A DNA stretch of 64,000 nt from an uncultured bacterium. GTDB taxonomy: Bacteria > Patescibacteriota > Patescibacteriia > SG8-24 > DYFX01. Under the pieces are notes generated by a model, which saw only the letters and a program-made list of their open reading frames with translations, searched no databases and was not told the DNA's origin. The position numbers were made by a program, and so were the translations under genes. Numbering within the stretch: the stretch's first letter is position 1; the number at the start of each line of letters is the position of its first letter. Positions 4,160 through 41,120 of this stretch are shown here, one piece after another. The stretch is taken from NCBI GenBank assembly GCA_937900255.1, contig CALCDZ010000001.1, positions 57,988-121,987 on the forward strand, given 5' to 3'.

Positions 4160-7100
4160 AGAAACGCGTCCTTATCGCCGCCGCTCTCATCGCCGCCGCT
4201 TCGGCCTGGCGCGTTTTTTGGCCGCCCGCAGCCGAAGCGCTGACCGGGTCTTCCTGCCCAGGCAACATCTGTAACGGCACGGTGAAGGTCGGCGGACAGG
4301 ATGTCGGATACTCTTGGACGGAAAACCAGGGCGCTGCGGGCGCGAGCCTCAAATTCCGTTTTCGGAGCGGTCCATACGTGGCCAGCGCGGATCCGGTGCG
4401 TTTCATCGTCACCGTCAGCGCGCCGTTCACTTCGAACTCCAGCCTGAAGAATCCGAGCCCGAGCACGGCTTTGCCTCCGAACCAGGTCGTCAACGGCCCG
4501 AGGACGATCGTCGAGCGGTCTTCCGCGTCCGTGAGTGCCGGTACCAGTTACGATTTCGTCCAGGAACTTCAGTACGGCTCGGCATCTCCGGGAACCGTTT
4601 CCGTCACGCTTGAGTTCGACGCGTACGGCACCGCCAAATTCGTCGGGCCGTTCGACGTCTACTTCGACTCCGCTTCGCCGTCGAACCGCGATGAGGGCGG
4701 ATCGCTCGCCCCCATTTATGGGGGAGGGTATCGTCAATGCTACGACGCAGTGGATAACGATCTCGATTATCGGCAGGATTGCGCCGACGCGGATTGTTCC
4801 GGAAAGCCTATCGGGGCGACCAGCGTCTGCGAAGCCTCGGAAACGACCTGCAACGACGGATTGGACAACGACGGCAACGGCAAGACGGATTGCGCCGACC
4901 CGCTCTGCAACGGCAGGCCCGGCAACGCCGCCGGCACCAAATCCTGCGGGGTGGAGAACGGTGGCGCCGCTCATGCCAACTGTGCCGACGGCTTCGATAA
5001 CGACGGCAACGGCAAGATCGATTGTTCCGACGACGCGCCCGGGACCGGCTGCTGGAAGTCCGGCTTCCAGGATTGCGCCGCGACCGAGACGTCCTGCACC
5101 GACAACATCGACAACGATCGCGACCAGGATTACTCGTCGGCCGTCGATGCGAATCCCGGAACAGGCGTCGATTGCCGCGATTACGATTGCAAGGGGCGGG
5201 GTAACTGCACGACCGACGAACGCAAGCGCTGGGATGCCGGTTCCGGCACGTTCGTCGAGGACCCGGCCCAGTGCTTCGACGGCATCGATAACGATCTTGA
5301 CGGCATGAAGGACTGTGCCGATCCTGATTGTCTCGGAGCGACGAGCGGCGCCCAACGTTGCACTACGTATGAGGCCTACCTGCCTCCGCGTCCTCTCGAC
5401 CCGACAGGCGCTTCGGCGCCGGCTTTCTATTTCAACTACTGCAACGACGGCATCGACAACGACGGTAACGGACTGACTGATGCCCTTGACCCGGCTTGCA
5501 AGAACGTTTTCGGCGAATGCGGTCCATCTCCGGCCATCGAAGACTTCACCTCCCTCTCCTGTTCGGACGGCAAGGACAATGACCTGAACGGGCGGATCGA
5601 CTGCGGCGATGCCGCTTGCCGCGCGGGCGGGAAGATCGGACGCGCCGGCTGCTTGAACGGGACGTGCGGCCTCCCTGCCAAATATGCGACGACGCAAACG
5701 GACGCGGCCGCGTGCGCCGCTTCCGAAAACGCCGCCAGCGTCTGCGGTGACGGCATCGATAACGACGGCAACGGCAAGGCGGATTGTTCGGACGCCAGCT
5801 GCGCCGGGCTGCGGCATGGCCCGACCGTCGGTTCGGTCGGCGCGCCTTACGTATGCGGTGCGGAGTCCGGGCCGCTGACCTGCCATGACGGCGCCGACAA
5901 CGATTCGGACGGCGGCGCGGACTGTTTCGACGCGGCCTGCCAGGACGGCGCGCAATGCGCCAAGCGTCCCGGAGCCGGAGGTTGGGCGCTTGCGGCCAGC
6001 TGCCCCGTCATTCCGGAAACGACTGCCCTGGCGCCGATCGCGCCGGGGAGCTTGGTCCTGCAGTACGCCCATGATGACCGCATCTACGCCGGAAGCCCAT
6101 ACCGCGTCCGCTTCGTCGGATACGGCAGCTTCAGTTCGCTGACGATCGTCATCGGGGATGCGGCGGTGCCGGCCAATGCGTTTCCGTTCGATGCCGGAAC
6201 CGGCAACTGCACGCTGGCGGGAACGGGTTCAGCCAAGCTGCGGTACGGAAGCCCTTCCGCCGGAGTGGGCGTCATCACCGAGATTCCAGGGCAGGCTCCT
6301 TCGGATTTCGACGTGACGTTGACATGCGCTTCCTCTTCGGCCATGCCCCTGGGCCCGCGCAGCTACAAGCTTTCGGTCGTGGATACGCATGCCGGCAACG
6401 TCGAGTTCGGAGAGGCGTCTCCCGTCGTCCAAGTGTTCGAGCACATGCCGCCGACGCTCACGGATCCGGCCGTCGAGGCGGAGGCGATCGTCTCCGGCAA
6501 GGTGGACGTGCCGGTCGGCGGTACCGTCCGTTTCCAGGCGACGCCGTCATCCGACCCTTCCGGAATCTGCCGCTGCGACTTCAACCTGAACGGGATGTCG
6601 ACCAGCTCGCCAGACGGCAATTGCCTGGTGACGATCGGTCCGTTCGCGAACGACGCCCCCTCCTATGCGATTTCGGCGGCTGCCGTCGACGGGGCTTCCA
6701 ATAAAAGCGCGACCAGCACGATCCAGACGATTAACGTGAACGTCATCCCGTCGGTCGCGGAAGATCTCACGCTCGGCGTCGACGGGAACGGCGCGGCTGT
6801 CACCACCTATCGCGGAGGCGATGACATCAGCCTCTCGGCGAACTACCGGACCGACACGCTCAGCACCTTCCCGGCCGCCTCGAACTGCCGCGTCTATGTC
6901 TACGACAAATCCTGGACCGGCGGCCAGGCGGCCAGCGTCTCGATGACGCCGGTGCCGGTAGGCGATATGCTCGGTTGCCAGGGCGTCTATACCGTCCCGG
7001 CTGGCCTGGCGGCGGGCCGTTATTGGATTTTCGTCGAGGCGACGGATTCGAGCGGGGACATCGTGCGTTCCAACGTCCAAACGTTCCTGAAATGCGAGCC

Positions 7101-8367
7101 TTCGGATGTCGGTACCGGCGATTGCAAGGATGCCGACTTCGATCATGACGGGGTTCCGGAAGGCCGTTATACCCCCGGCGCGTACGCTTCGCCTCCGACG
7201 CCGACGTACCCAGGCGCACAGCCTCATGCATGCGATGATTGCGTCAACCTTTACAATCCGAACCAGACCGACCGGAACGCCAATGGCATCGGCGACGCCT
7301 GCGAAGCCGGCGCGGTCGGTCGCTGTCAGTACAAATACTGCGGTTCCGCCCCGAACGACGCGACGCCTGGCGCGGCTTGCTCGACCGATGCCGATTGCGC
7401 GGCGCCGGACCTCTGCATCGTCGTCGATCAGCCGATGTGCACCGTCAACTGCGCCGCGGACGCCGATTGCCAGCCGCCGAACCTCGCGCTTTCCGGCGTG
7501 TGCAAGCTCGATTGGGGCGTCTGCGACGGAACCGGCGCGGGGGCGGGGGATTGCTGCTTCTCGAACTCCGATTGCGTTTCCGGAACCTGCAAGGCGCTCG
7601 TCAAGCCGTTCATCGAGACGGTTTCCGGCCAGATCTACAGCGGGGGCGAACTGCAGGCCGGCGAGACGCCGCCCGTCTATAACGCGACGTTCTGCCTGCA
7701 GTCCAACGGCTCGATCACCAATTTCACGAGCGCGGGCGGCTGCTCGCTCTCCGGTATCCCTGAGTACCGGATACCTTCCAAGGAGACGGGGTATTCAGGC
7801 TCCTTCGGATCGATCGACGTCGACGGTATCCTGAACGGGAAATATGGAGCGCTGAAGACGCCGGCACAGCCACCTGACCAGCTCGGCGGCGGCATCTACT
7901 ATTATCCCTCAGGCCTGACCGTGAGCGCGCCGATCGTCTTCAAGAACTCCGCGGGCGTCGCTCGCGCCAACGGGCTTGTGGTCGTCAAAGGGGACTTGCA
8001 CATCGACGCTGACCTTGAATACCAGGACCGCAACGAAAGCGACCTCAAGAACCTGGCCTCGGTCGGGTGGATCGTGCTCAAGGATGCGGGCGGGTCCGGC
8101 GGCAACGTCTACGTGTCCGGCACGGTCCGCAAGCTGGTCGGTGCGTTCTATGCCGAAAACGGCATCGATACCGGTGAAGGGACGACCCAGCTTGAGGCAG
8201 CGGGCGCCTTCGTCGCCAGGAACTTCAGCTTCAAGCGGCAGTATGCGTCGCGGACGTCGGGTTCGGAGCGCGTGACGTTCGACGCGCGCCTCATCCTCAA
8301 TCCACCGCCGGGCCTTTCGGATGCCGGACGTTCCCTGCCCGGCTTCCGTTCCGTGTCGGGGGAATGA
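4156..8367 (+). CDS. giant secreted Cys-rich repeat protein (nine CxDGxDNDGNGKxDCxDxxC repeats; thrombospondin-type-3 / MopE-like metal-binding motif) - putative surface adhesin
   Basis: Start MKKRVLIAAALIAAASA (signal peptide) at 4156; the ORF-track start at 3943 is an upstream extension. Nine tandem Asp/Cys repeats at 4738-5950. A TSP3-like YNPNQTDRNANGIGDACE at ~7243-7308. Further Cys-rich modules lie at 7300-7600. About 1403 aa. Confidence 0.75.
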   Translation: MKKRVLIAAALIAAASAWRVFWPPAAEALTGSSCPGNICNGTVKVGGQDVGYSWTENQGAAGASLKFRFRSGPYVASADPVRFIVTVSAPFTSNSSLKNPSPSTALPPNQVVNGPRTIVERSSASVSAGTSYDFVQELQYGSASPGTVSVTLEFDAYGTAKFVGPFDVYFDSASPSNRDEGGSLAPIYGGGYRQCYDAVDNDLDYRQDCADADCSGKPIGATSVCEASETTCNDGLDNDGNGKTDCADPLCNGRPGNAAGTKSCGVENGGAAHANCADGFDNDGNGKIDCSDDAPGTGCWKSGFQDCAATETSCTDNIDNDRDQDYSSAVDANPGTGVDCRDYDCKGRGNCTTDERKRWDAGSGTFVEDPAQCFDGIDNDLDGMKDCADPDCLGATSGAQRCTTYEAYLPPRPLDPTGASAPAFYFNYCNDGIDNDGNGLTDALDPACKNVFGECGPSPAIEDFTSLSCSDGKDNDLNGRIDCGDAACRAGGKIGRAGCLNGTCGLPAKYATTQTDAAACAASENAASVCGDGIDNDGNGKADCSDASCAGLRHGPTVGSVGAPYVCGAESGPLTCHDGADNDSDGGADCFDAACQDGAQCAKRPGAGGWALAASCPVIPETTALAPIAPGSLVLQYAHDDRIYAGSPYRVRFVGYGSFSSLTIVIGDAAVPANAFPFDAGTGNCTLAGTGSAKLRYGSPSAGVGVITEIPGQAPSDFDVTLTCASSSAMPLGPRSYKLSVVDTHAGNVEFGEASPVVQVFEHMPPTLTDPAVEAEAIVSGKVDVPVGGTVRFQATPSSDPSGICRCDFNLNGMSTSSPDGNCLVTIGPFANDAPSYAISAAAVDGASNKSATSTIQTINVNVIPSVAEDLTLGVDGNGAAVTTYRGGDDISLSANYRTDTLSTFPAASNCRVYVYDKSWTGGQAASVSMTPVPVGDMLGCQGVYTVPAGLAAGRYWIFVEATDSSGDIVRSNVQTFLKCEPSDVGTGDCKDADFDHDGVPEGRYTPGAYASPPTPTYPGAQPHACDDCVNLYNPNQTDRNANGIGDACEAGAVGRCQYKYCGSAPNDATPGAACSTDADCAAPDLCIVVDQPMCTVNCAADADCQPPNLALSGVCKLDWGVCDGTGAGAGDCCFSNSDCVSGTCKALVKPFIETVSGQIYSGGELQAGETPPVYNATFCLQSNGSITNFTSAGGCSLSGIPEYRIPSKETGYSGSFGSIDVDGILNGKYGALKTPAQPPDQLGGGIYYYPSGLTVSAPIVFKNSAGVARANGLVVVKGDLHIDADLEYQDRNESDLKNLASVGWIVLKDAGGSGGNVYVSGTVRKLVGAFYAENGIDTGEGTTQLEAAGAFVARNFSFKRQYASRTSGSERVTFDARLILNPPPGLSDAGRSLPGFRSVSGE

Positions 8368-8440: not shown

Positions 8441-9499
8441 ATGGCGTTTCTTGCCCGATCAAAACCCAGCTATCTCGGCATCGACTTCGGCGCGGGCGGC
8501 ATCAAGCTCGTCGAGTTGATGAACGAGAAAGGACGGGCGCGCCTCGTCACCTACGCGTTCATCGAGCGCCCGGTGGCCGAAATGCCGCACGGTTACGTCG
8601 ACGATCCGACCGCGACGGCGGAGTTGCTGAAGAAGATGCTCAAGAAGGCGAAGACGACGACGAGAAAGGCCGTGTCGGCCCTGCCGATCGCCTCGGTCTT
8701 CAGTTCCATCATCAGCGTCCAGAAGTCCTCGAAACGGGAAGAACTGGAACAATCCGTCCAATACCAGGCCAAGAAGCTGATTCCGCTGCCGCTTGAAGAG
8801 ATGTCGGTCGACTGGAAACCGCTCGCGGCGCCCTCGCAGGATCCCGAGGAGAAATATCTCCAGGTGCTGCTGACGGGAGCGGCCAAGACGCTGATCGGGA
8901 AGTATACCGGCATTTTCGCGGCGGCCGGACTCGAACTGCTCAGTCTCGAGACGGAGGCGCTGGCGATGATCCGTTCCCTGATCGGGCGCGACCGTTCGCC
9001 GACGCTGGTGCTCGATATCGGGACCGTCCGGACGAACATCCTGATCGTCGAGAATGGCATCCCGCTCGTCAGCCGGAGCGTCGCGCAAGGGGGGGCGACC
9101 GTCACCAGGGAAATGTCTTCGGCGTTGGGCGTGCCCGAAGACCAGGCGGAGAGCATGAAGATCGACGCCTCCGCGATGGCGGCGATGTACGAAAACGGTT
9201 TCCCCAAGCTGTTCGAAAACGCGTTGGCTCCGATCCTTTCGGAACTCACGTATTCGACCAACCTGTTCCTCGGGCAGAAGGCCAACGAGAACAAGCGTCT
9301 GGACAAGATCATCCTGACCGGCGGCGGCGCCCTGCTGCCGCAATTGGCGGATCATCTTTCCAAGGCGATGAATCTGCGCGTCTATATCGGCGATCCTTGG
9401 GCCCGGGTCGTCTACCCGGAGGCCTTGCGTCCCGTGCTCAACCAGATCGGGCCGCGGTTCGCGGCTGCGGTCGGTTTGGCGATGCGCGACATCGATTGA
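8441..9499 (+). CDS. pilM: type IV pilus assembly ATPase-like protein PilM
   Basis: MAFLARSKPSYLGIDFGAGGIKLVEL... actin-like fold typical of PilM. RBS GGAGG at 8435-8439. Extended -10 TGTGCTATACT at 8405-8415. Confidence 0.85.
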   Translation: MAFLARSKPSYLGIDFGAGGIKLVELMNEKGRARLVTYAFIERPVAEMPHGYVDDPTATAELLKKMLKKAKTTTRKAVSALPIASVFSSIISVQKSSKREELEQSVQYQAKKLIPLPLEEMSVDWKPLAAPSQDPEEKYLQVLLTGAAKTLIGKYTGIFAAAGLELLSLETEALAMIRSLIGRDRSPTLVLDIGTVRTNILIVENGIPLVSRSVAQGGATVTREMSSALGVPEDQAESMKIDASAMAAMYENGFPKLFENALAPILSELTYSTNLFLGQKANENKRLDKIILTGGGALLPQLADHLSKAMNLRVYIGDPWARVVYPEALRPVLNQIGPRFAAAVGLAMRDID

Positions 9500-9500
9500 T

Positions 9501-10418
9501 ATGGACGACATCAACCTGCTCACGGGCGCTCATGCGCCGAAAGAAACCAAATCCGGCGTCCGTCCTTCTCCGACTCCGAGCGAGGATGAAATGGCCCTGC
9601 ATGTGCCGGAACCTGATCCTGGCGCGCCCGAACCTCCACCCGCCGATTTCCTGAAGCCCGAATCCGCCATATCCGGAAAAAAAAAGGAGCCTGATGCCCC
9701 CGCGGCGACCGTGCGCGAACCCGCTCTGGCGCGACCGTCCGTGAAGATGTCCGAACCGGCCGTGGCTGCCTCCGTACCGCCCATCGAAGAAGCCGGCGGA
9801 GGGACGCTGCGGGTAAGCCTGATCACGACCGGATCCGAAGCCGGTTTCTCGGAAATCGCGCTCAATCGGCGTCTCAGGTCTTTTGCCTTGGTCGGCGTGG
9901 CGGGACTTCTCGTCGATGCGCTGATTTTCGGCGGCCTGACCTTCCGACAGATCCAGGTGGAAGCACGGAACGCCGATATCGATCGTCAGGTGAAGGACGT
10001 CGATGCGCAGATCGCCGCGCGCGAAAAGGCGCTTTTCCCGGCGCGGGATTTCCAACAGTTGATCCGCGCCGAACAGTCGGTGCTGGAGAACCACGCGCAT
10101 TGGAGCGGGGTCCTCAGGCTCCTTGAGGAAACGGCCTTGCCGCAGGTGCAGTTCGGCGGGCTGTCCGGAGCGGAATCGGGTACCCTTAACTTCGAGGTCT
10201 TCGCCCGCGACTACACGACGCTGGCGAAACAGATCGTGGCGTTCCGCCAGGATTCCAGGGTGAGGAAGGTCGTCTCGGGGACGGCCTCCGCGGATTTCGG
10301 GGAAAACGACCTGCTGAAAGGCGTCCGTGCGGAGATGACCTTGACCGTCGACCCCGACGTCTTCAAATACGCGCCGGAACGCGAGATCACCGGATCCGCC
10401 ACGGCCACGACATCCTGA
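9501..10418 (+). CDS. pilN: PilN-like pilus assembly protein with a long Pro/Ala-rich N-terminal insertion
   Basis: Starts MDDINLLTG (PilN-type INLL motif), has a single TM (FALVGVAGLLVDALIFGGL) then a coiled region. Lies immediately after pilM. Confidence 0.7.
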   Translation: MDDINLLTGAHAPKETKSGVRPSPTPSEDEMALHVPEPDPGAPEPPPADFLKPESAISGKKKEPDAPAATVREPALARPSVKMSEPAVAASVPPIEEAGGGTLRVSLITTGSEAGFSEIALNRRLRSFALVGVAGLLVDALIFGGLTFRQIQVEARNADIDRQVKDVDAQIAAREKALFPARDFQQLIRAEQSVLENHAHWSGVLRLLEETALPQVQFGGLSGAESGTLNFEVFARDYTTLAKQIVAFRQDSRVRKVVSGTASADFGENDLLKGVRAEMTLTVDPDVFKYAPEREITGSATATTS

Positions 10419-10428
10419 TGACTCTCCC

Positions 10429-11001
10429 GTGATTACCCTGACGAGAAGCAAAAGCGCGGTCTGGATCGCCCGGCATCTCCTGGTTTCCTGCCTGGTCCTT
10501 TTCTTGGTGCTGCTCGCATTGGGGTACGCATTTCTCTTCCGTCCCCGGATCGCCGCCGTCGTGGCTGCGGACCGCACCGCGCTCCTGGATGAGGAGCGCC
10601 GTTCGAAACAGGCATACCTGGCGAAGCTCGACGAGCTCGGGAAGCGCTACGACGCGTTCGACCATGAAGACGTCGATCGCGTCCGGAAGATGATCCCCGC
10701 CGATGAAGACGTTCCGGGGCTCCTGGCGATGCTCGAGGCTTCCGCCGTCGCGAGCGACGTCCAACTGACCGCCATCAACTTCGCCGCCAGCGACACGACC
10801 GGGTTGCCCGGCATCCAAGGGCTTTCGGCCGTCAACGTTTCCGTTTCCATCCAGCATGGCGACTACGGGCGTTTCAAGCTGTTCCTCGACGCGCTTGAAT
10901 CCAACCTGCGCATCTTCGACGTGCGCAGCGCCAGCATCAACCCGGGTTCCGCCACCTACTCCCTGACCATCCGCACCTATATTTGGGGTAAGCTCACATG
11001 A
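10429..11001 (+). CDS. pilO: PilO-like pilus assembly protein
   Basis: GTG start. N-terminal TM, then a coiled-coil, then a PilO-like C-terminal domain. Position between pilN and pilB. Confidence 0.65.
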   Translation: MITLTRSKSAVWIARHLLVSCLVLFLVLLALGYAFLFRPRIAAVVAADRTALLDEERRSKQAYLAKLDELGKRYDAFDHEDVDRVRKMIPADEDVPGLLAMLEASAVASDVQLTAINFAASDTTGLPGIQGLSAVNVSVSIQHGDYGRFKLFLDALESNLRIFDVRSASINPGSATYSLTIRTYIWGKLT

Positions 11002-11261
11002 CTATGCGGAAATTCACCAAGAGCCAAAAGCAGATGATGGTCCTCGCCGCGCTCCTCGTCGCGATCGTGGTCGTCTTGGCGATCTTCGTCTTCAAACCGA
11101 CGGTCGCGGTCCGCTCTCCGTACGTGCCGAAGGTCGTCGATACCCGCATCCCGGATGATCTCCTGCGGCAGCCCGAATACCGGAAGCTCAATCTGCCGGT
11201 CGAGCTTCCGTTGGTGCCGGGGCGCACGGGCAGGAGCAATCCTTTCGAACCGTACCGTTAA
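10998..11261 (+). CDS. small membrane protein, possibly PilP-like (R-N-P-F motif near C-terminus)
   Basis: 87 aa with an N-terminal TM helix and a C-terminal GRSNPFEPYR. ATGA overlap with pilO. The PilP assignment is tentative. Confidence 0.45.
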   Translation: MTMRKFTKSQKQMMVLAALLVAIVVVLAIFVFKPTVAVRSPYVPKVVDTRIPDDLLRQPEYRKLNLPVELPLVPGRTGRSNPFEPYR

Positions 11262-11270
11262 GAATCCTCC

Positions 11271-13025
11271 ATGCCTGTCGCCCTCAAGACCGCCGCCGGC
11301 CTGCTTGAACTGCTTGCCGGCCAGGGAAAACTCGGCAAGGAATCGTTCGTGGCGTTGTCCACGGAGTTTTCAGGACAAGACGCGCTCAACCTCGAGCGCG
11401 CGCTGGTCGAACGCAAGCTGGTGCAGGAAGAGGATCTCGCACGGGCGAAGGCCGAGGGGTTGGGAGTGGAGTTCGTCGATCTCATCGGCCGCCAGGTGGA
11501 TGCCGAAACGCTCAACATCATCCCGAAATCCGTGGCGGAAACGTATCAAGTGCTGGCCTATGAGCTTTCCGGCCCTTCGATCAAGATCGCCTACGTCGAT
11601 CCCTTGGATGCCGGCGCCGTCGAAGCGATCGGGTTCCTGACGGCCGAGCGCAACCTGCAGCCGATCCCCGGCATCATCACCCCGACGGCCTTCATGGCGG
11701 TCCTCAAGCAGTACGGCACCCTCAAGAGGGAGGTCGCGACGGCGCTCGAGACGGCCAAGGAAGAACGGGAACCGGAAAAGGAAGACCGGTTGGCGGGCGA
11801 GGAAGCCAGGATCGAGGAGGTCATCAAGGGCGCTCCGGTATCCCGCATCGTTTCCGTCATCATGCGGTATGCGGTCGAATCGAAGGCGTCCGACATCCAC
11901 ATCGAGCCGAAAGGCAAGGAAACGAGGGTGCGGTACCGCGTCGACGGGCTGCTCCGGACGCTGCTCACGCTGCCAGGCTATCTCCATGGATCGATCATCT
12001 CGCGCGTGAAGGTGCTCGCGAACCTCAAGCTCGACGAGACGCGCATCCCCCAGGACGGGCGCATCACCCAGGTCATCGGCGGCAAGAACATCGATTTCCG
12101 CATCTCCACCCTGCCGGTGGTCGACAACGAGAAAGTCGTCATGCGCGTGCTCGACACTTCCACGGGCGTGCCGAGCCTCGAGCAGCTCGGTTTCCGCGGG
12201 AAGTACCGCGAAGCCATGGAGCAGGAGATCCGCCGCCCGCACGGCATGATCCTGATCACCGGCCCGACCGGATCGGGCAAGTCGACGACGCTCCTGACCA
12301 TGCTCAGCATGATCAACGACGAAGGCATGAACATCTCGACCTTGGAGGACCCGGTCGAGTATTTCCTGCCCGGCGTCAACCAGTCCCAGGTGCGTCCCGA
12401 GATCAATTTCACCTTCGCGAACGGGCTGCGCGCGCTGCTCCGCCAGGATCCCAACGTCATCATGGTCGGCGAGATCCGCGATCGTGAGACGGGTGAACTG
12501 GCCGTCCATGCCGCGCTGACGGGTCACCTGATCTTGAGCACGATCCATACCAACGACGCCATCGGCGTGATCCCGCGCCTGAACGACCTCGGCGTCGAGG
12601 CGTTCCTGCTGTCCGCCACGCTCAACCTGATCATCGCGCAGCGGCTCGCCCGCAAGATCTGCGAGCACTGCAAGGAGCCGGCCGAAACGCCGGCCAATCT
12701 GGTGGAAACGGTACGCGAAACCCTCAAACGGATCCCCGCGGAGTATCATCCGGCCGGCCTTGATCCGGACGGCGTCCTGCCGTTCTTCAGGGGCAGGGGA
12801 TGCCCGCGTTGCAGCGACACCGGATACCTGGGGCGCACCGTCATCGCCGAGCTGATCGACGTCACGCCGGAAATCCAACGATTGATGAACGCCGGGTTCC
12901 CGACCGATCAAGTCAAAGCCGAAGTCGAACGGCAGGGCTGGATCACCATGAGACAGGACGCCATGTTGAAGGTCGTCGAAGGCGTCACTACGATTGACGA
13001 GGTCCTCCGCCTCGCGCGAGAATAG
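11271..13025 (+). CDS. pilB: type IV pilus extension ATPase PilB (GspE family)
   Basis: 584 aa with Walker A GPTGSGKST and an N-terminal GSPII_E_N-like region. Confidence 0.9.
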   Translation: MPVALKTAAGLLELLAGQGKLGKESFVALSTEFSGQDALNLERALVERKLVQEEDLARAKAEGLGVEFVDLIGRQVDAETLNIIPKSVAETYQVLAYELSGPSIKIAYVDPLDAGAVEAIGFLTAERNLQPIPGIITPTAFMAVLKQYGTLKREVATALETAKEEREPEKEDRLAGEEARIEEVIKGAPVSRIVSVIMRYAVESKASDIHIEPKGKETRVRYRVDGLLRTLLTLPGYLHGSIISRVKVLANLKLDETRIPQDGRITQVIGGKNIDFRISTLPVVDNEKVVMRVLDTSTGVPSLEQLGFRGKYREAMEQEIRRPHGMILITGPTGSGKSTTLLTMLSMINDEGMNISTLEDPVEYFLPGVNQSQVRPEINFTFANGLRALLRQDPNVIMVGEIRDRETGELAVHAALTGHLILSTIHTNDAIGVIPRLNDLGVEAFLLSATLNLIIAQRLARKICEHCKEPAETPANLVETVRETLKRIPAEYHPAGLDPDGVLPFFRGRGCPRCSDTGYLGRTVIAELIDVTPEIQRLMNAGFPTDQVKAEVERQGWITMRQDAMLKVVEGVTTIDEVLRLARE

Positions 13026-13032
13026 AACCACT

Positions 13033-13422
13033 ATGGCCGACGATCGAAAAAACGTGAAGATCCTGCTGGTGGAAGATGACGCGTTCCTGGCGGGAGTCTA
13101 CGCGACCAAGTTCGAACTCGAGGGTTTTTCCGTCCTCCTGGCTTCGGATGGCGAGCAGGGGCTGAAGATGGCCGAGAAGCACGTGCCGGACCTCGTCCTG
13201 CTGGATATCCTCATGCCGAAGATGGACGGATTCGAGATGCTGCATCGCATCAAGCTCGACCCTAAGCTTGAGCATATTCCCGTCGTGATGCTGACCAATC
13301 TCGGGCAGAAGGAGGATGTCGAGCGTTGCCTGAAGGACGGCGCGGCCGACTACCTCATCAAGGCCCATTTCGTGCCGGGCGAAGCGGTCAAGAAGGTCAA
13401 GCGGATATTGAATCTGAAGTGA
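13033..13422 (+). CDS. single-domain response regulator (CheY/PilH-like receiver)
   Basis: KILLVEDD...LLDILMPKMDGFE...DYLIKA receiver motifs. Embedded between pilB and pilC. Confidence 0.8.
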   Translation: MADDRKNVKILLVEDDAFLAGVYATKFELEGFSVLLASDGEQGLKMAEKHVPDLVLLDILMPKMDGFEMLHRIKLDPKLEHIPVVMLTNLGQKEDVERCLKDGAADYLIKAHFVPGEAVKKVKRILNLK

Positions 13423-13425
13423 CGC

Positions 13426-14634
13426 ATGCCGATTTTCAGTTATAAGGTCAAGGACGCGCGCGGCGCCCAGCTCGATGGGGCGGTCGAAGCGGTCGACGAG
13501 ACCCAGGCATCGGAAGTCCTGCGCGAGCGCGGGTATCAGGTCATCTCCGTCATCGCGCGCGAGGAACCTTCGGTCGGCAACATGCGCTTCACGTTCCTTC
13601 AGCGCGTGACGCCCAAGGACGTCGTCGTCTTTTCGCGCCAGCTTTCGGTCATGGTCGGCGCCTCCGTCGCCATCGTCCGCGCGCTTCGCACGAGCGCGCG
13701 GCAGACGAGCAACTCCAAGCTTCGGGCCATTGTGCTGGACATCGCCAACGAAGTCGAAGGGGGCGTGCGCCTGTCGGAGGCGTTCAACAAGCACCCGCGC
13801 GTCTTCGGCAGCTTTTACGTCAACATGATCCGCTCCGGCGAGACGACCGGCAAGCTGGATGATGTCCTCCTGTACCTTGCCGAGCAGCAGGAAAAGGATT
13901 ACGACCTGCGGCAGCGGGTGCGCGGCGCGATGACGTACCCTATCTTCGTCCTCGCGATGCTTTTCGCGGTCGGCACGGTCATGATGATCTTCGTCGTCCC
14001 GAAACTGACCGCCGTGCTGTCCGAGTCCGGCGTCGGACTGCCGGTCTCCACGCGCATCCTGATCGCCGTGAGCGATGTCTTCGTCAACTTCTGGTACCTG
14101 ATCGTGGGCGGCGTCCTCGGCGCCGTCCTCGGCGTGCGCGCGGCGTATCGCACGCCGGTCGGACGGCGCATTTTCGACGGTTTCGTCCTGCGCCTGCCGG
14201 TGTTCGGCTCCCTGCTGCGCCGGATCTACATGACCCGCATCACGCATAGCCTTTCGACCTTGATCGAAGGCGGCGTCGATATGGTCACGAGCCTGAAGAT
14301 CGTCTCCGGCATCGTCGGCAACGAGGTCTATCGCGAGACGCTCGTGAGGACGGTGCAGGAAGTCGCGGCCGGGAACTCCATGACGACCGTCTGGAAAGGC
14401 AACAAGGCGATCCCGGACATGGTCACCCAGATGGTGGCGGTCGGGGAGGAGAGCGGAAAGCTGCAGCAGGTCCTCGAGCGGCTGACGGATTTTTATACCC
14501 GCGAAGTCAACGCTTCCGTCGCGAACCTCTCGACCGCCATCGAGCCGATCATCATGGTCGTCATGGGCGTCGCCGTCGGGGGCCTGGTCTCGGCCATCAT
14601 CTTGCCGATGTACACGTTAGCCCAACAGATGTGA
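13426..14634 (+). CDS. pilC: type IV pilus inner-membrane platform protein PilC (GspF family)
   Basis: 402 aa with two T2SSF-like repeats and three TM segments. Confidence 0.9.
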   Translation: MPIFSYKVKDARGAQLDGAVEAVDETQASEVLRERGYQVISVIAREEPSVGNMRFTFLQRVTPKDVVVFSRQLSVMVGASVAIVRALRTSARQTSNSKLRAIVLDIANEVEGGVRLSEAFNKHPRVFGSFYVNMIRSGETTGKLDDVLLYLAEQQEKDYDLRQRVRGAMTYPIFVLAMLFAVGTVMMIFVVPKLTAVLSESGVGLPVSTRILIAVSDVFVNFWYLIVGGVLGAVLGVRAAYRTPVGRRIFDGFVLRLPVFGSLLRRIYMTRITHSLSTLIEGGVDMVTSLKIVSGIVGNEVYRETLVRTVQEVAAGNSMTTVWKGNKAIPDMVTQMVAVGEESGKLQQVLERLTDFYTREVNASVANLSTAIEPIIMVVMGVAVGGLVSAIILPMYTLAQQM

Positions 14635-15008
14635 ACAAGGGCATGAGCGCGCTTGGCGCCGTATCTTCCGTGGCGGTCATCATCCTGGTCTCAGCCTTGA
14701 TGTTCTTGGGCGTGCGCGACCAGCAGCGTCGTTCGCGGGACGCGCAGACGGTGTCGCGCGTCCGCCAGATGCAAGCGGAAATCGAGAGATATCGCGCCAG
14801 GACCGCCTCGTATCCGTCCGCGGTCTCCGAACTCGGTACCGCAGGAGCGGACGGCTTCGGGTATCAAGCCGAGCCGTCGGGGTGCGGCGTCGACCGTCTC
14901 GAATCTTGCCGAAGCTACCTCTTGCGGTTCCGCTTGGAAGGCGACGTCGGTACGCTCGCCGGGAAAAATTGCGTCGCAAAACCCCTGGAGCTCTCGTGCT
15001 CCCGCTGA
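14631..15008 (+). CDS. pilin-like protein lacking a canonical prepilin (G/FTLIE) cleavage motif
   Basis: A hydrophobic N-terminal helix is followed by RDQQRRSRDAQTVSRVRQMQ, which parallels the NSARQRSRDAKRVSDI segment of the downstream pilins. There is no G-F-T-L-I-E. GTG at 14631 overlaps the pilC stop; an alternative ATG is at 14643. Confidence 0.45.
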   Translation: MNKGMSALGAVSSVAVIILVSALMFLGVRDQQRRSRDAQTVSRVRQMQAEIERYRARTASYPSAVSELGTAGADGFGYQAEPSGCGVDRLESCRSYLLRFRLEGDVGTLAGKNCVAKPLELSCSR

Positions 15009-15022
15009 AAGCGTGCTAGACT

Positions 15023-15046
15023 GTGGATAATCTCCTTTGAATATTC
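15023..15046 (+). promoter_or_regulatory. candidate pilin promoter region
   Basis: TGTGGATAAT and TTGAATATT -10-like elements lie 20-43 nt upstream of the first pilin ATG (15066). The choice between them is ambiguous. Confidence 0.3.
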
Positions 15047-15065
15047 CCGTAAACTTCCTCATCAT

Positions 15066-15548
15066 ATGATTGAGCCGCGGCGACGAAAAGCCGGCTTCAC
15101 CCTCATCGAGCTGCTGGTCGTCATCGCCATCATCGGCCTGCTCTCCACCCTGGCCGTGGTCGCCCTCAACAGCGCCCGTCAGCGTTCCCGCGACGCCAAG
15201 CGCGTGTCCGACATCAGCCAGATCCAGACGGCCTTCGAGCTGGCGTTCTCCGAAGTCGGGAACTATCCCACGGCATCAGGCCTCGTGTTGGGAGGGACTT
15301 CCTCCAAGGTGTTCTGCAATGTCGGCAATGCCCCGACGTTCCAGGCGACGGCATCAGGTTGCAGCACGGTCTACATGGGGCTCGTTCCGAGCAATCCCTC
15401 GCCGAACGGTGCCGACTACGTCTATACCAGCGCGACGGCATCAGGGCTTTACTCGCTGACCTTCACCTTGGAAGGCGCGACCGGACAGCTCGCGGCAGGC
15501 GCCAACTGCGCCAACCAGAACGGCATCCAGGCCGGTTCCAGCTGCTGA
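15066..15548 (+). CDS. pilA: type IV pilin (class III signal peptide)
   Basis: MIEPRRRKAGFTLIELLVVIAIIGLL shows the prepilin peptidase site G|FTLIE. Confidence 0.85.
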   Translation: MIEPRRRKAGFTLIELLVVIAIIGLLSTLAVVALNSARQRSRDAKRVSDISQIQTAFELAFSEVGNYPTASGLVLGGTSSKVFCNVGNAPTFQATASGCSTVYMGLVPSNPSPNGADYVYTSATASGLYSLTFTLEGATGQLAAGANCANQNGIQAGSSC

Positions 15549-15586
15549 CCACGTTTACTAAGTCTTAGGAAGACGCATCTTCATCT

Positions 15587-16060
15587 ATGAAGCGTTCCCA
15601 ATCGGGTTTCACCCTCATCGAGCTCTTGGTCGTCATCGCCATCATCGGCTTGCTCTCCACCCTGGCCGTGGTCGCTCTCAACAGCGCCCGTCAGCGCTCC
15701 CGTGACGCCAAGCGCGTGTCCGACATCCGCCAGGTCCAGACCGCGCTCGAGCTCGGCTTCTCCGAGACGAATAACTACCCGGTCGGTTCTGCGGTCGCCC
15801 TGGGCGGCGCGTCGACCAAAGTCCTGTGCAACGTCGCGAACGCGGCCACGTTCCAGGCTACGTCCGCCGGCTGCGGCACGATCTACATGGGTCTTGTCCC
15901 GACCAACCCGACGCCGAACGGTGCCGACTACGTCTATACCAGCGCTTCCGCCTCCGGCGCGTACTCGATCACCTTCACCCTTGAAGGCGCGACCGGACAG
16001 CTCGCGGCAGGCACCAACTGCGCCAACCAGAACGGCATCCAGGCCGGTTCCAGCTGCTGA
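15587..16060 (+). CDS. pilA: type IV pilin, tandem paralog of the preceding gene
   Basis: MKRSQSGFTLIELLVVIAIIGLL. Long stretches are identical at nucleotide level to 15066-15548 at the N- and C-terminal ends. RBS AGGAAG lies upstream. Confidence 0.85.
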   Translation: MKRSQSGFTLIELLVVIAIIGLLSTLAVVALNSARQRSRDAKRVSDIRQVQTALELGFSETNNYPVGSAVALGGASTKVLCNVANAATFQATSAGCGTIYMGLVPTNPTPNGADYVYTSASASGAYSITFTLEGATGQLAAGTNCANQNGIQAGSSC

Positions 16061-16085
16061 GGCTTGAACGGCGGCGGAAAACGGA

Positions 16086-16117
16086 CCCCCGCACCTCGCG
16101 TGCGGGGGTTTCGTGTT
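16086..16117 (+). terminator. rho-independent terminator after the tandem pilin genes
   Basis: CCCCCGCAC-CTCGC-GTGCGGGGG, a 9-bp GC stem, followed by TTTCGTGTT. Confidence 0.6.
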
Positions 16118-16135
16118 ATACTGGTGGCGTCGTTC

Positions 16136-16681
16136 ATGAGCCTTGTCCCGCTTATGCCTTATCACGAAAAAACCGAAGCTTTCACCCTCATCGAGCTCTT
16201 GGTCGTCATCGCCATCATCGGCCTGCTCGCGACCGTGACGGCCGTCTCCGTCAATGCGGCGCGCGCCAAGTCACGTGATTCCAAACGCGTGTCCGACATG
16301 AAGCAGATACAGAAGGCGTTGGAGCTCTCCTATGAGCCAGGCTCCGGCTATCCGGTCGTAAGCGCTCCGGTCACGATCGGGACGCCGTCGACCGACGTGC
16401 TTTGCGCCAAGGGGGCGAGCACGGGATTCGTCGCCGATACGACGGCCGCCAACTGCGACGCCGGAAAGGTCTTCATGGGACTGGTCCCTGGCAACGCCGT
16501 TCCGGGCGGAACGGCCTATACCTACAGGAGCACCGATGCCAACGGCGCCGCCTGCACGACGGCTCCCTGCAACGGCTATTGTCTGCAGGCCAACCTGGAA
16601 ACGGGCTTGCCTCAAGGCGGACTGGCGGCCGGCGGGATCATCGGCAACCAGACCGCCCTCAAGAACGGCACATGCCCATGA
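16136..16681 (+). CDS. type IV pilin (third, divergent paralog)
   Basis: ...KTEAFTLIELLVVIAIIGLLATV. An alternative start is at 16154. Preceded by the terminator hairpin and TATACT at 16116-16121. Confidence 0.75.
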   Translation: MSLVPLMPYHEKTEAFTLIELLVVIAIIGLLATVTAVSVNAARAKSRDSKRVSDMKQIQKALELSYEPGSGYPVVSAPVTIGTPSTDVLCAKGASTGFVADTTAANCDAGKVFMGLVPGNAVPGGTAYTYRSTDANGAACTTAPCNGYCLQANLETGLPQGGLAAGGIIGNQTALKNGTCP

Positions 16682-17457
16682 TGGCAGCCCTGATCATCAG
16701 CGCGCTGCTGGGCCTCGTGATCGGCAGTTTCCTGAACGTTGTCATCTGTCGCTTGCGTTCAGGGGAGTCGGGCTGGAGAAGCCGTTCGCGATGCCCGGAG
16801 TGCCGCACGACGCTCCGACCTTCGGAACTCGTCCCTGTCGTCAGTTTCCTGATGCTGCGCGGGCGATGCCGTTCCTGCCGCAAGACGATTTCCTGGCAGT
16901 ACCCCGCCGTCGAGCTTTCGACAGCGGTACTTTTCGTGTCTGCATACCTGTCCCATGGCGGTGCCGGCATCACGGGGCTTGGCGCGTGGCTTCCGATCCT
17001 GAGGGACTGGTTATTCATCGCCGGCCTGACCGTGGTCTTCGTCATCGATCTTCTGGACATGGTCGTCTTCGATTCCGTCACGATCCCGATGGCCGCGATC
17101 GCGTTCTTCCTCAACTGGGCCGCCGGAAGCCGTCCGCTCGGCTTGGTCCTGGCGGCGGCGGTCGGGGGAGGTTTCTTCCTGGCGCAATACCTGGTTTCGC
17201 GGGGCAGATGGATCGGCGGCGGGGACATCCGCATCGGTGCGATGATGGGGTTCATGTTGGGGTTTCCCGGCATCCTGCTGGCGCTTTTCTTTTCGTACGT
17301 GAGCGGCGCCATCGTCGCGGTCTCCCTGCTTTCCGCCGGAAAGGCGAAGTGGACGAGCCAGATGGCGTTTGGGACCTTCTTGAGCCTTGGGACGGTTTTC
17401 ACTTTGTTTTTCGGCCGGTTCGTGCTGTCATGGTATGCGGGCCTCTTGGGTGCGTGA
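16672..17457 (+). CDS. pilD: prepilin peptidase PilD (A24 family)
   Basis: N-terminal tetra-Cys (CPECRT...CRSCRK), multiple TM segments, and a GGGDIRIGAMMG-type motif. The start overlaps the pilin stop. Confidence 0.85.
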   Translation: MPMMAALIISALLGLVIGSFLNVVICRLRSGESGWRSRSRCPECRTTLRPSELVPVVSFLMLRGRCRSCRKTISWQYPAVELSTAVLFVSAYLSHGGAGITGLGAWLPILRDWLFIAGLTVVFVIDLLDMVVFDSVTIPMAAIAFFLNWAAGSRPLGLVLAAAVGGGFFLAQYLVSRGRWIGGGDIRIGAMMGFMLGFPGILLALFFSYVSGAIVAVSLLSAGKAKWTSQMAFGTFLSLGTVFTLFFGRFVLSWYAGLLGA

Positions 17458-18061
17458 GGGAGCCCGGAGCGGCTTCACGCTCGTCGAGTTCCTGGTCTCG
17501 ATCGCCATCATCGGCGTCATGACCGGGATGATGATGGCGAACTTCCATGGCGGGCAGCAGAGTTCCGAAATCCGATTATCGGCCGACCTGCTCGTCTCGC
17601 AACTGAGGTCGATCCAGACTTCCAGTTACTCCGGCCGCCTCGTGGCCGTCTGCAGCGGAGGTTCGAACGACCTCGCCGTCTGCGAACCGGGCAGCGGATC
17701 GGCCCTGGGCTGTCCTGGCGGCATCTGTCAAAAGCGCGTGCCGAGCGGCTACGGGGTCCATTTCAATGCGGGATCGGCCTCTGAGTATACGCTGTTCTAC
17801 GACACCGACGGCGACAAGCGTTATGAGGCGGGGGAGCGGGCGTACGGCGTCCCGTTCGTCTCGAGCGGTACCGTCCGACTGACCGATTCGAGCGCCGGGT
17901 TGCCGCTCGATCTGGTCTACGTCCCGCCCTACGGCCAGTTGTACGTCAACGGTTCCGCATCGGGAACCGTCACGGTGACGCTCACGCTCGGTCATCGGTA
18001 TGGAGGGCTCATCCGGCACGTCAATATCCACCGGCTTTCAGGGAAAATCGATCATGACTAG
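17435..18061 (+). CDS. minor pilin / pseudopilin
   Basis: SGFTLVEFLVSIAIIGVM prepilin motif. A possible GTG start at 17450 would give the leader MREGARSG. Confidence 0.7.
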   Translation: MRASWVREGARSGFTLVEFLVSIAIIGVMTGMMMANFHGGQQSSEIRLSADLLVSQLRSIQTSSYSGRLVAVCSGGSNDLAVCEPGSGSALGCPGGICQKRVPSGYGVHFNAGSASEYTLFYDTDGDKRYEAGERAYGVPFVSSGTVRLTDSSAGLPLDLVYVPPYGQLYVNGSASGTVTVTLTLGHRYGGLIRHVNIHRLSGKIDHD

Positions 18062-18656
18062 AAACGTCCCGCGCGGACAATCCTTCATCGAGGCGATGGT
18101 GGCGATCGGCGTCATCATCTCTTCGGTTTCCAGCTCGCTGGCGCTGGTGCAGTCCTCGATCACGGCCACGACGAAAGGCGGCGCGCAGGTCGTCGCCGCC
18201 AATCTGGCGCGCGAGGGTGTGGAAGTGGTCCGCGCGGCGCGCGACACGAATTGGCTCAAGGGCCGGGGATTCCAAGTCGGCTTGATCGACCCCGGCGGCG
18301 ACAAGACCGTCCGTCCGATCCTCGACAGGGCCGCCGGCACGTGGACGCTCTCGTTCCTCCCCACGTCGCTTTCATCTTCGAACGCCGACGTTTACGTCAC
18401 GGATGAAGGCCTCTATCTGCAGGCGGACGCTCAACCGAGCGGCAGCGCGGTCAGCCCGTACGCGCGCACGGTCACGCTGCTGCATCTCTGCCGGGACGAC
18501 GCATCGGGGACGGAGCGTGCGGTCGGAGGGTCCGGGACGTGCTCTGGGTCCGAGACGTTGGTCGGCCTGCTGGTCGATTCCGACGTCCGGTGGCGCGGTG
18601 TCGGAGGCCGGTTTCAGACGTTGACGGTCGAAGAACGCCTCTATGATTGGCGCTAG
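18054..18656 (+). CDS. minor pilin / pseudopilin
   Basis: MTRNVPRGQSFIEAMVAIGVI (G|QSFIE with E at +5). Overlaps neighbouring genes. Confidence 0.65.
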   Translation: MTRNVPRGQSFIEAMVAIGVIISSVSSSLALVQSSITATTKGGAQVVAANLAREGVEVVRAARDTNWLKGRGFQVGLIDPGGDKTVRPILDRAAGTWTLSFLPTSLSSSNADVYVTDEGLYLQADAQPSGSAVSPYARTVTLLHLCRDDASGTERAVGGSGTCSGSETLVGLLVDSDVRWRGVGGRFQTLTVEERLYDWR

Positions 18657-19219
18657 GCGCGGTCTCACTCTGATGGAACTCCTGGTCGTCATGGGCGTCT
18701 TCAGCCTGACGGTCACGATCGCTTCCGCCATCTTCATCCAATCGAACCGCGCGCAGCGGCGGGTCTTGGCGTTGACGACGGCGCAGGCCGATGTCCGGTT
18801 CGCGCTGGAGGCGATCGTCCGCGAGGTCCGCGGCGGGCAGGTCGATTATGCGACCTATGAACGTTCCGGCGGCGTGCCTATTCCCGCGGCTGCGCTGCTG
18901 ATCAAGAGCGCCGATGGACGCCACTTGAAATTCCACGCCTCGACCGACCCCACGGTCTGTCCCGGGAACGTGGCCGGATGCTTGGCGGTCGACGTCGATG
19001 GCCAGACCCAGAGCGTCACTTCTTCCGGCGTCAACCTCCAGTCCCTGACGTTTTTCATCAGTCCTCAGGCCGACCCCTTCTCCGTCGACGAAGCGAGCGG
19101 CCTCTACAAGGCCGACAGCCAACCGCTCGTGACCGTCTCCATGAAAGTCAAGGTGGCGGGATCGAAGACGGAAGACGCAGCCGTCCTGTCCGCCCAGACG
19201 ACCGTAGCCTCGAGAGCCT

Positions 19220-19230
<11 letters not shown>
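18643..19230 (+). CDS. minor pilin / pseudopilin (PilW-like)
   Basis: MIGARRGLTLMELLVVMGVFSL (G|LTLME with E at +5). Confidence 0.65.
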
Positions 19231-22160
<2,930 letters not shown>

Positions 22161-33329: not shown

Positions 33330-33404
33330 TCCGAGGTAGCTCAGCGGTAGAGCAGTGGACTGTTAATCCATTGGTCCTGGGTTCGAATCCCAGCCTCGGA
33401 GCCA
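33330..33404 (+). tRNA. tRNA-Asn (anticodon GTT), CCA encoded
   Basis: TCCGAGGTAGCTCAGCGGTAGAGCAGTGGACTGTTAATCCATTGGTCCTGGGTTCGAATCCCAGCCTCGGAGCCA. Acceptor TCCGAGG/CCTCGGA, anticodon loop CTGTTAA, T-loop TTCGAAT. Confidence 0.85.
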
Positions 33405-33441
33405 TGAGCAGGCGTGTGGGGCGACCCACGTGCTTGGTCAA
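33394..33441 (+). repeat. 48-bp direct repeat copy 1 (tRNA-Asn 3' end plus 37 nt downstream)
   Basis: cctcggagccatgagcaggcgtgtggggcgacccacgtgcttggtcaa. Copy 2 at 35157-35204 is identical except for one mismatch. Confidence 0.75.
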
Positions 33442-33443
33442 AA

Positions 33444-33478
33444 GCCAGCCAAAAAATTGGCTGGCTTTTGTGTTTTTT
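33444..33478 (+). terminator. rho-independent terminator after tRNA-Asn
   Basis: GCCAGCCAA-aaaa-TTGGCTGGC hairpin followed by TTTTGTGTTTTTT. Confidence 0.6.
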
Positions 33479-33708
33479 AGGTCGTTCGGATTAGCGACCT
33501 GAACCAGTGTGATTTCGCATTGGAAACGCACCCACGTGGGAATCAAGAACTTTAACCTTATTTCCTGGTTCGAATCCCACGTGTTTTCACGCGCCGTCAC
33601 TGCATGACCTCGGGCGCATTGGTTGACCCAATGCATCAGAAAAGCTACTCTTAAAGGAGGATTTCCAACGTAATTCGATATAGCACCTATTTTGCAAATG
33701 ATAATGTT

Positions 33709-34305: not shown

Positions 34306-34360
34306 CTTACCGAACAAAAAAGAGGCATTCTGACAGTGGATGCCTCTGATGATCTCGATC

Positions 34361-35041: not shown

Positions 35042-35156
35042 CTGTCCTCTTCCTTTCATGCAATGCCATCGACACTATGTCGATGCGGGAGGAGACTAGC
35101 ACGCGGTTGGCGTTGGCGTCAACCGTGCCTAGGGACTCCAGTGGGAATCGCTACCT

Positions 35157-35204
35157 GGGAGCCATGAGCAGGCGTGTGGGGCGACCCACGTGCTTGGTCA
35201 ATAG
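35157..35204 (+). repeat. 48-bp direct repeat copy 2 (att-like duplicate of the tRNA-Asn 3' end)
   Basis: cctgggagccatgagcaggcgtgtggggcgacccacgtgcttggtcaa, preceded by a degenerate T-arm-like gggaatcgctacc. Confidence 0.75.
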
Positions 35205-35250
35205 ATCATCAAATCATTGGTGGGCTGTTGACTGATAGCAACACGAGTCT

Positions 35251-36040: not shown

Positions 36041-36070
36041 CTTTTTTGCTGAAATCAGCGACATACCGCT

Positions 36071-38679: not shown

Positions 38680-38685
38680 GCGCAT

Positions 38686-40989: not shown

Positions 40990-41120
40990 CGACGTGGGTA
41001 CGATCGTCGATTGCTGATTCGCCGGAATCAATAAACCGAATCCGCCCCTGTGAGGCGGGGGAGATGGACGTACTCGGCCTGTCTCCGTATCGAGGTTTCA
41101 ACGTCCTCCACGACGTGGAA

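Follow-up and report, generated by a model that had tools for sequence, protein, structure and literature searches.

Adjacent type IV pilin paralogues with probable gene-conversion tracts at their conserved ends in an uncultured member of the Patescibacteriota

A stretch of 64,000 nucleotides (nt) from an uncultured bacterium of the Patescibacteriota (contig CALCDZ010000001.1 of assembly GCA_937900255.1, positions 57,988 to 121,987; this whole 64-kb stretch is called the window and positions are counted from its first letter) carries two adjacent type IV pilin genes, which are named here pilin A and pilin B. Taking the explanation as a whole, we consider it probable that A and B are two intact type IV pilin paralogues of the major type, conserved in position, which form a bicistronic unit, contribute to a mixed pilus and undergo passive gene conversion. 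The ends of the two genes are probably kept alike by short gene-conversion events. A first-pass annotation, made by a model from the letters of the sequence, had described tandem, near-identical pilin genes bracketed by their own promoter and terminator, and had seen in them a substrate for gene conversion or for antigenic variation of the major pilin.

Both open reading frames (ORFs) were found exactly where the first-pass annotation had placed them and scored above the gathering score of the Pfam family N_methyl (PF07963), with E-values of about 1e-9. Each begins with the features of a class III signal peptide, namely a short basic leader ending in Gly which is followed by Phe at +1 and Glu at +5; the leader of pilin A is 10 amino acids (aa) long and Arg-rich. 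The two genes form a direct repeat whose period is 512 nt and are identical at 381/474 positions (80.4%) in a global DNA alignment and at 81% of positions in the proteins. The longest exact runs measure 47, 34, 30, 25, 24 and 23 nt, those of 47 and 30 nt lying at the 3' end, that of 34 nt internally and runs of 20-25 nt in the N-terminal region. A DNA identity below 70% without long identical blocks, which had been named in advance as the outcome that would count against the proposal, was therefore not what the alignment returned.

Long identical runs had been expected at both ends of the genes, and this proved correct for the C-terminal end, where the last 78 nt contain one difference (G15501 in A, A16013 in B; Ala/Thr). 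It did not hold at the N-terminal end. There the block starts at Gly-1/Phe+1 and encodes identical protein, while the DNA is 95% identical, and because six synonymous changes in 120 nt interrupt it the exact runs reach only 25 nt. The leader, which had been described as shared, is in fact the most divergent segment (MIEPRRRKAG in A, MKRSQSG in B; 43% DNA identity). The middle is divergent overall, as had been noticed, but contains the third, internal exact run of 34 nt. The mature proteins differ at 26 residues, all of them within residues 51-146 and mostly in alpha1-C, the alpha-beta loop and the first beta strands, at sites that are also variable family-wide (entropy 1.9 vs 0.79). Mature residues 1-40, which form the assembly helix, are identical in A and B and the C-terminal Cys-bounded loop is almost identical.

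The family pattern was examined across many samples in 120 relatives. Mature residues 1-40 were essentially invariant, the last 30 or so were conserved at 90-97% and residues 51-130 were hypervariable, and the N-terminal 40 aa were 100% identical in dozens of unrelated family members. By similarity to the middle of pilin B, pilin A ranked 21st of 119, with 20 proteins from other organisms being closer. Since the pattern is family-wide, the protein-level arrangement of conserved ends around a variable middle is not specific to the A/B pair, and it appears to reflect mainly purifying selection on the assembly helix and on the C-terminal Cys-bounded loop. Identity of the protein ends was accordingly rejected as evidence of conversion, the same identity being present in unrelated family members.

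At the DNA level the genes were compared in a codon alignment of 17 genes which included the syntenic loci of relatives. Between A and B the synonymous divergence (pS) reached 0.75 in the leader and 0.66 in the middle, against 0.18 in the N-terminus and 0.05 over the C-terminal 31 codons. The value for the middle is saturated and is as large as the distance between different genomes, while the C-terminal value (1/21.2) compares with 0.19-0.52 to other genomes and the N-terminal value with 0.28-0.66. When nearest neighbours were determined by segment, the leaders and the middle of B grouped with orthologues, the B middle lying nearest to B-type orthologues of other genomes, and at both ends A grouped with B. 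The mutual pairing of A and B had bootstrap values of 0.74 at the N-terminus and 0.93 at the C-terminus, against 0.006 in the middle and 0 in the leader.

A GENECONV-style permutation with polymorphic and third-position sites returned P-values of approximately 0.005-0.007 for the longest fragment and of 5e-5 to 2e-4 for the second. Over polymorphic sites the longest fragment was the internal 34-nt run (P ~0.005), at which sliding-window identity was 0.97 vs 0.75 between genomes, and the C-terminal tract gave P ~0.007 in the silent-site fragment test. In a rate-controlled test, where expectations were scaled by site-specific between-genome rates, there were 3 differences vs 11.4 expected in the C-terminus (P = 0.001) and 6 vs 12.7 expected in the N-terminus (P = 0.011), with an excess in the middle of 72 differences vs 56.9 expected. 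The pairs of relatives L084 and L086 had the same C-terminal deficit in this test and those of L082, L002, L083 and L001 did not; as the deficit is present in some genomes only, conversion would be sporadic. Furthermore, A and B have the derived state QLAAG in common. The picture is that of interlocus gene conversion, with paralogues closer than orthologues in tracts, a different topology elsewhere and, in a modest sample, clustered silent identity beyond rate heterogeneity, and the suggestion that the pair is a substrate for this process was borne out by the footprint found at its ends.

The third pilin gene, pilin C, appears to be involved also. Its first 48 mature nt are 96-98% identical to A and B of its own genome, vs 65-83% in other genomes, and after nt 48 the identity to A and B drops to 0.63-0.65. 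The 43-nt exact run of B and C includes the synonymous CTC-TTG codons of B. This suggests that the N-terminus of pilin C has been homogenised with those of A and B, as a third conversion tract.

A short contig from a sibling sample (L087, 1-1899; ENA ERZ650225; 1.6x coverage) carries a pilin A with G15501A, which is the B-state base, and a second gene in which the B leader is joined to the body of pilin C at a junction inside the 43-nt shared run. Relative to the window this 1.9-kb contig shows three breakpoints, and neither of its ends is related to the window. It was rejected as direct evidence of recombinants, being probably chimeric given the breakpoints, the low coverage and a junction inside a repeat, while it could be a real recombinant. 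That tandem A, B and C recombine in natural populations through their shared 30-47-nt exact runs to give hybrid pilins, of which the B-leader/C-body gene and the B-state base in A would be examples, seems to us decidedly doubtful. If true, shuffling of full-length genes would diversify the surface of the pilus, and perhaps also host range or susceptibility to phages, of an episymbiotic bacterium from the candidate phyla radiation (CPR).

Homologues of pilins A and B were almost all from metagenome bins of Patescibacteria/CPR, and the closest match in the genome collection was 73% identical; the organism could be placed in Patescibacteria/Minisyncoccota. Many related metagenome-assembled genomes (L001, L002, L005 and others) are titled 'uncultured Gammaproteobacteria' yet contain a Patescibacteria-type pilus locus, and these titles look like batch mis-annotations. 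The order A-B-C-PilD was also found in at least five related genomes (L082, L002, L083, L084 and L086), each with an Arg-rich leader at position 1 and an MKR[ST]QS(K)G leader at position 2, and on the strength of this shared order and these leader types we regard A and B as old positional orthologue groups. The ratio of nonsynonymous to synonymous substitution (dN/dS) between orthologues was 0.12-0.43 for both A and B, so that by this measure purifying selection acts on both of them. Of 39 related Patescibacteria loci, 19 had tandem arrays of 2-3 such pilins, and the copy number ranged from 1 to 3 even among close relatives, and therefore such arrays are a common trait of the lineage. Only A was kept in L085 and only B in L003 and L004. 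In L084 an extra truncated pilin copy of 111 aa with an A-type leader (3663-3998) lies directly upstream of the A gene. Together with the loci that keep only one of the two genes, this copy shows birth-and-death turnover of the pilin array.

The putative transcription signals around the pair were assessed by phylogenetic footprinting, since a generic sigma-70 scan returned 0 sites in 14400-17000 and is uninformative for this lineage. Candidate promoter P1 has the block TG.TA.ACTGTGGATAAT, which was kept in 10 related loci with only the bases after TG and after TA varying and with diverged flanks. The motif TGNTAKACTG occurred at two sites only in the 64-kb window, 15014 and 16114, vs 0.11 expected. 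The less strict TGNTANAMT had 9 matches vs 2.3 expected, all on the + strand, intergenic and upstream of + strand genes, and 4/9 (320, 23941, 54042 and 57359) have an ATG 9-11 nt downstream, which suggests leaderless mRNAs at these four positions. A TGnTATACT-type motif is most likely the extended -10 consensus of the lineage. Besides 15014 and 16114, TGnTA(T/G/C)A(C/A)T motifs were observed at 320, 8407, 23941, 54042 and 57359 (+).

Downstream of pilin B, the hairpin and T-tract terminator described in the first-pass annotation at 16086-16117 was present, with an interrupted T-tract and a minimum free energy of -37.2 kcal/mol in an 81-nt context (z = -2.4). In 10/10 related loci the last major-type pilin was followed by a GC hairpin and a T-run, with at least four different stem sequences; per-locus folds were used for this comparison, as hairpins differing in sequence and length could not be aligned by MAFFT, which left RNAalifold with 0 pairs. 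The TATACT -10 element proposed downstream was likewise recovered, with TGnTATA[CA]T directly after the T-run in 9/10 related loci and some 14 nt farther along in the tenth, L004. No terminator-like site and no promoter motif was found by scan in the 38-nt spacer between A and B, which carries an element of a class, TAATAAGTCWTTAGRAA, that was also present in the A-B spacers of L082, L002, L083, L084 and L086. With the conserved P1 block upstream and the hairpin downstream, a promoter and terminator belonging to the pair, as had been claimed, appear well supported, the promoter function of P1 and the co-transcription of A and B being predictions from these motifs. The hairpin/promoter module of 16086-16122 recurs at 57334-57367, where hairpin GAAACCCG/CGGGTTTC is followed by G and then by TGCTATACT.

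An AlphaFold model of pilin A (predicted local distance difference test score 90.4) consisted of an alpha1 helix at residues 13-64 and a beta head of 8 strands, and pilin A is thus predicted to have the lollipop fold, in which an alpha1 helix of about 50 residues sits on a beta-sheet head. The best fold match by Foldseek against the PDB was full-length PAK pilin (1oqw), with probability 1.00, a template modelling score of 0.48-0.52 and a weak E-value of 8.6e-3, and was used only to confirm the general pilin fold. A sequence search of the PDB matched solved pilins over alpha1 only; the Streptococcus sanguinis structure 8pfb was matched over residues 8-75 only (E 9e-6).

The explanation that we favour would run as follows. 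A and B would be transcribed as one bicistronic unit from the conserved extended -10 promoter P1 (15014-15031) to the intrinsic terminator, and the second promoter, P2, which overlaps the terminator tail, would set a transcription level of its own for pilin C, PilD and the minor pilins. PilD would cut both prepilins after Gly-1. Because the assembly helices are identical, either subunit should fit the same filament core, and the differences between A and B would be displayed on the exposed alpha1-C, alpha-beta loop and first beta strands, so that A and B would most likely build a heteropolymeric pilus whose surface is a mosaic, in the manner of S. sanguinis PilE1/PilE2. Family-wide constraint on the ends would keep identical runs of DNA, and these runs would seed short-tract conversion among the tandem copies, pilin C included. 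Conversion would homogenise the ends further, and the central region, too diverged to recombine, would stay distinct. Conversion would then be a passive by-product of the tandem arrangement and of the constrained ends, with no programmed switch.

Several points weigh against this explanation. The conversion statistics come from short segments (87-120 nt) and 17 sequences with P ~0.001-0.01, and synonymous sites are partly constrained in a 63% GC genome. The N-terminal tract keeps its 6 synonymous differences and is hence old or partial. The same mosaic could also have arisen if A had taken up a central segment from a foreign source. The promoter call draws on conservation and motif enrichment, the generic sigma-70 scan being without a match. 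We infer co-transcription, co-assembly and the status of major pilin alike, the last only because the genes are small, precede a terminator and belong to an abundant family.

The simplest competing explanation is that purifying selection, acting on the helix and the C-terminal loop and extending to codon usage, has kept the ends alike with no conversion. The family-wide conservation of both ends, as given above, is what it would predict, DNA compared between genomes is likewise more nearly identical at the ends (0.82-0.89) than in the middle (0.55-0.66), and 4/7 of the within-genome pairs have no excess homogenisation. We nevertheless regard selection alone as unlikely, for after rate scaling there remain too few differences at both ends of A and B and too many in the middle, the C-terminal pS is 0.05 vs at least 0.19 to any other genome and the nearest-neighbour topology is a mosaic. 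The derived state held in common by A and B, and the synonymous codons of B that pilin C carries within the 43-nt run, also argue against it. Another reading keeps the two pilins functionally separate, in different filaments, conditions or hosts, like Thermus PilA4/PilA5 or Saccharibacteria PilA1/PilA2. A-type and B-type genes do form distinct, long-lived orthologue groups with different leaders, some relatives keep only one of the two, and the Saccharibacteria strain TM7x builds two distinct pili (PMC11623550). Against these stand the single PilB/PilC/PilM set in the cluster, the distance of 38 nt between the genes with no terminator or promoter motif in it, and the identity of the assembly helices over 40 residues, and a division of labour of this kind appears improbable to us.

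Programmed antigenic or phase variation would require either a donor and an expression copy, as with pilE/pilS of Neisseria, or an invertible switch, as with tfpQ/tfpI of Moraxella. Variation of the Neisseria type makes use of promoterless, 5'-truncated donor cassettes and of a G-quadruplex initiator upstream of the expressed pilin, and in the Moraxella switch inverted repeats flank an invertible segment that is acted on by the invertase Piv. The shared flanks around a variable core, the copy number of 1-3 in relatives with the truncated extra copy in L084, and the low-coverage contig L087 with its B-state base in A and its B/C hybrid gene would all suit such a system. However, neither gene is truncated, each has a start codon, a leader conserved by position and evidence of purifying selection, and the homogenised tracts are the conserved ends and not the variable region. 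Searches of the 64-kb window with A and B (blastn and tblastn) found no silent, promoterless or 5'-truncated pilin cassettes, the matches being A, B, pilin C, the minor pilins and the small pilin-like ORF. No G-quadruplex motif (G3+N1-7 x4) was present on either strand in 13000-18000. The genes are in direct orientation, flanking inverted repeats were not found beyond weak, scattered inverted matches, the cluster contains no recombinase gene, and L087 is most likely chimeric. In its programmed sense the antigenic variation raised in the first-pass annotation therefore did not survive, and we consider it very improbable that such a system operates here; passive conversion between two full-length genes is the explanation that we retain.

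The genes belong to a complete, monoderm-style type IV pilus cluster (8441-20071, + strand) in a region with 63% GC content throughout (Table 1). The cognate machinery expected near type IV pilins is present as PilD, PilB, PilC and PilM, and at least four minor-pilin-like genes come after PilD. A second, independent assembly contig (L081) was identical to the window over 6.5 kb, including both pilin genes, and the tandem arrangement is therefore no accident of assembly. An Rfam search over the window returned tRNAs only, with none in the pilin region.

Table 1. Coordinates of the genes, homogenised tracts and putative transcription signals of the pilus cluster
Feature	Position	Strand	Remarks
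PilM	8441-9499	+	Cluster machinery; PilN/O-like ORFs come next
PilB (T2SSE)	11271-13025	+	Assembly ATPase
Receiver-only response regulator (REC)	Between PilB and PilC	+	
PilC (T2SSF)	13426-14634	+	Platform protein
Small pilin-like ORF	14631-15008	+	Last gene of the upstream pilM-N-O-pilB-REC-pilC unit
Candidate promoter P1	15014-15031	+	TGCTAGACTGTGGATAAT; extended -10 TGCTAGACT, then GTGGATAAT; 44 nt upstream of the pilin A ATG
Pilin A, 160 aa	15066-15548	+	Leader MIEPRRRKAG, then FTLIE; Pfam N_methyl E 1.6e-9
N-terminal homogenised tract	A 15096-15215 = B 15608-15727	+	
Internal exact run, 34 nt, PNGADYVYTSA	A 15400-15433 = B 15912-15945	+	Candidate short conversion tract
C-terminal homogenised tract	A 15471-15548 = B 15983-16060	+	Single difference, 15501/16013
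A-B spacer, 38 nt	15549-15586	+	Carries conserved element TTACTAAGTCTTAGGAA (15555-15571)
Pilin B, 157 aa	15587-16060	+	Leader MKRSQSG (7 aa), then FTLIE; Pfam N_methyl E 1.1e-9
Exact run, 43 nt, B vs C	B 15607-15649 = C 16180-16222	+	
Intrinsic-terminator-like hairpin	16086-16117	+	CCCCCGCAC/GTGCGGGGG at 16086-16108, 9-bp GC stem, 5-nt loop, then TTTCGTGTT to 16117
Candidate promoter P2	16114-16122	+	Extended -10 TGTTATACT, overlaps terminator tail
Pilin C, 175 aa, Ala at -1	16155-16681	+	Pfam N_methyl; PilD adjoins directly, then minor pilins
Prepilin peptidase PilD	16681-17457	+	Pfam A24_N_bact E 3.8e-31; Peptidase_A24 E 1.5e-10

The start of pilin C is most likely the ATG at 16155, because the orthologues share this ATG and the length of 175 aa and read ATA in place of the upstream ATG at 16136. 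The small ORF which precedes pilin A had no Pfam match, and neither Glu5 nor the G|FTLIE motif for cleavage and methylation is present in it. Its N-terminus is hydrophobic; it also has an RRSRDAQ..VRQMQ helix and an LEG..G.LAGKNC..SC tail, is 28.6% identical to pilin A over 147 aa (tblastn, E 1e-9) and is joined to the pilin genes by repeat family D4. A gene of 121-134 aa occupied the same position in the syntenic loci that have upstream sequence. From these similarities we class this ORF as a divergent pilin-like paralogue. Directly upstream of the promoter motif of pilM there is an ORF of 1474 aa (3943-8367, +) without a Pfam match.

Elsewhere in the window a type I restriction-modification system (35967-41218; HsdM 36071-37522, HsdS 37519-38679, HsdR 38686-40989) was observed in a low-GC stretch (53-59% GC), between two 67-nt direct repeats of 96% identity (35967-36033 and 41152-41218), each of which contains TGCTAAAAT. 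In the region 33330-35230 the 3' end of tRNA-Asn, together with the 66 nt that come after it (33385-33470), has a second copy of 83% identity at 35145-35230. The duplication is att-like, encloses approximately 1.7 kb including an ORF with an Amidase_6 domain (34361-35059, - strand) and may be the remnant of an integrated element.

The value of the locus lies in its annotation and in a well-controlled case of short-tract gene conversion, and current understanding is not overturned. Type IV pili are thought to be central to host attachment and DNA uptake in CPR/Patescibacteria (PMC6744442, PMC11623550), and almost nothing is known of the pilin repertoire of these bacteria outside the Saccharibacteria. 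The promoter consensus TGnTATACT, often with a leaderless ATG 9-11 nt downstream, should be usable for this uncultured lineage, and a terminator overlapping a promoter appears as a recurrent module. The pair is also a candidate for a second bacterial heteropolymeric type IV pilus, with two putatively co-transcribed major-type pilins of identical assembly interfaces and differing surfaces.

In having pilin paralogues with conserved segments and non-reciprocal transfer between copies the locus resembles pilE/pilS of Neisseria. That system has silent truncated donors, a G-quadruplex element and high-frequency switching, none of which was seen at this locus, and it transfers minicassettes of the variable region, whereas the tracts here cover the conserved ends. 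The resemblance to interlocus gene conversion and concerted evolution of tandem paralogues as a general process (e.g. PMC3966223, PMC2720389) extends to paralogues that are closer than orthologues in stretches, to mosaic divergence and to tracts seeded at high identity. Unlike general concerted evolution, the tracts here are short and terminal only (~35-120 nt) and the central region evolves independently.

Among Patescibacteria, Saccharibacteria TM7x has the pili T4P-1 and T4P-2 (PMC11623550) and a CPR-enriched pilin family has been described (PMC6744442). The pili of this group have, as here, PilM/N/O, PilB, PilC, PilD and several pilins with no PilQ, but the major pilins of TM7x lie in different loci and belong to different filaments, while those of the window are adjacent, 81% identical and predicted to lie in one transcription unit. 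As for the Pam pilus of CPR (10.64898/2026.03.03.709456), it belongs to another, chaperone-usher-like type of system and was set aside as not relevant. The closest parallel in arrangement is with S. sanguinis, where the adjacent major pilins PilE1 and PilE2 form a stochastic heteropolymeric type IV pilus (PMC10628169, PMC6497953). In both cases two neighbouring, full-length and highly similar major-type pilin genes are found in a monoderm-style cluster without PilQ, and the N-terminal helices are conserved with the differences on the globular surface. Co-assembly was shown by experiment in S. sanguinis and here we only infer it; the proteins are not close in sequence beyond alpha1, and the present pair differs from that of S. 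sanguinis also in its C-terminal Cys-bounded loop and in a promoter/terminator bracket dedicated to it. The tandem major-pilin pair is an ordinary feature of pilin loci in Patescibacteria and an arrangement of a known kind.

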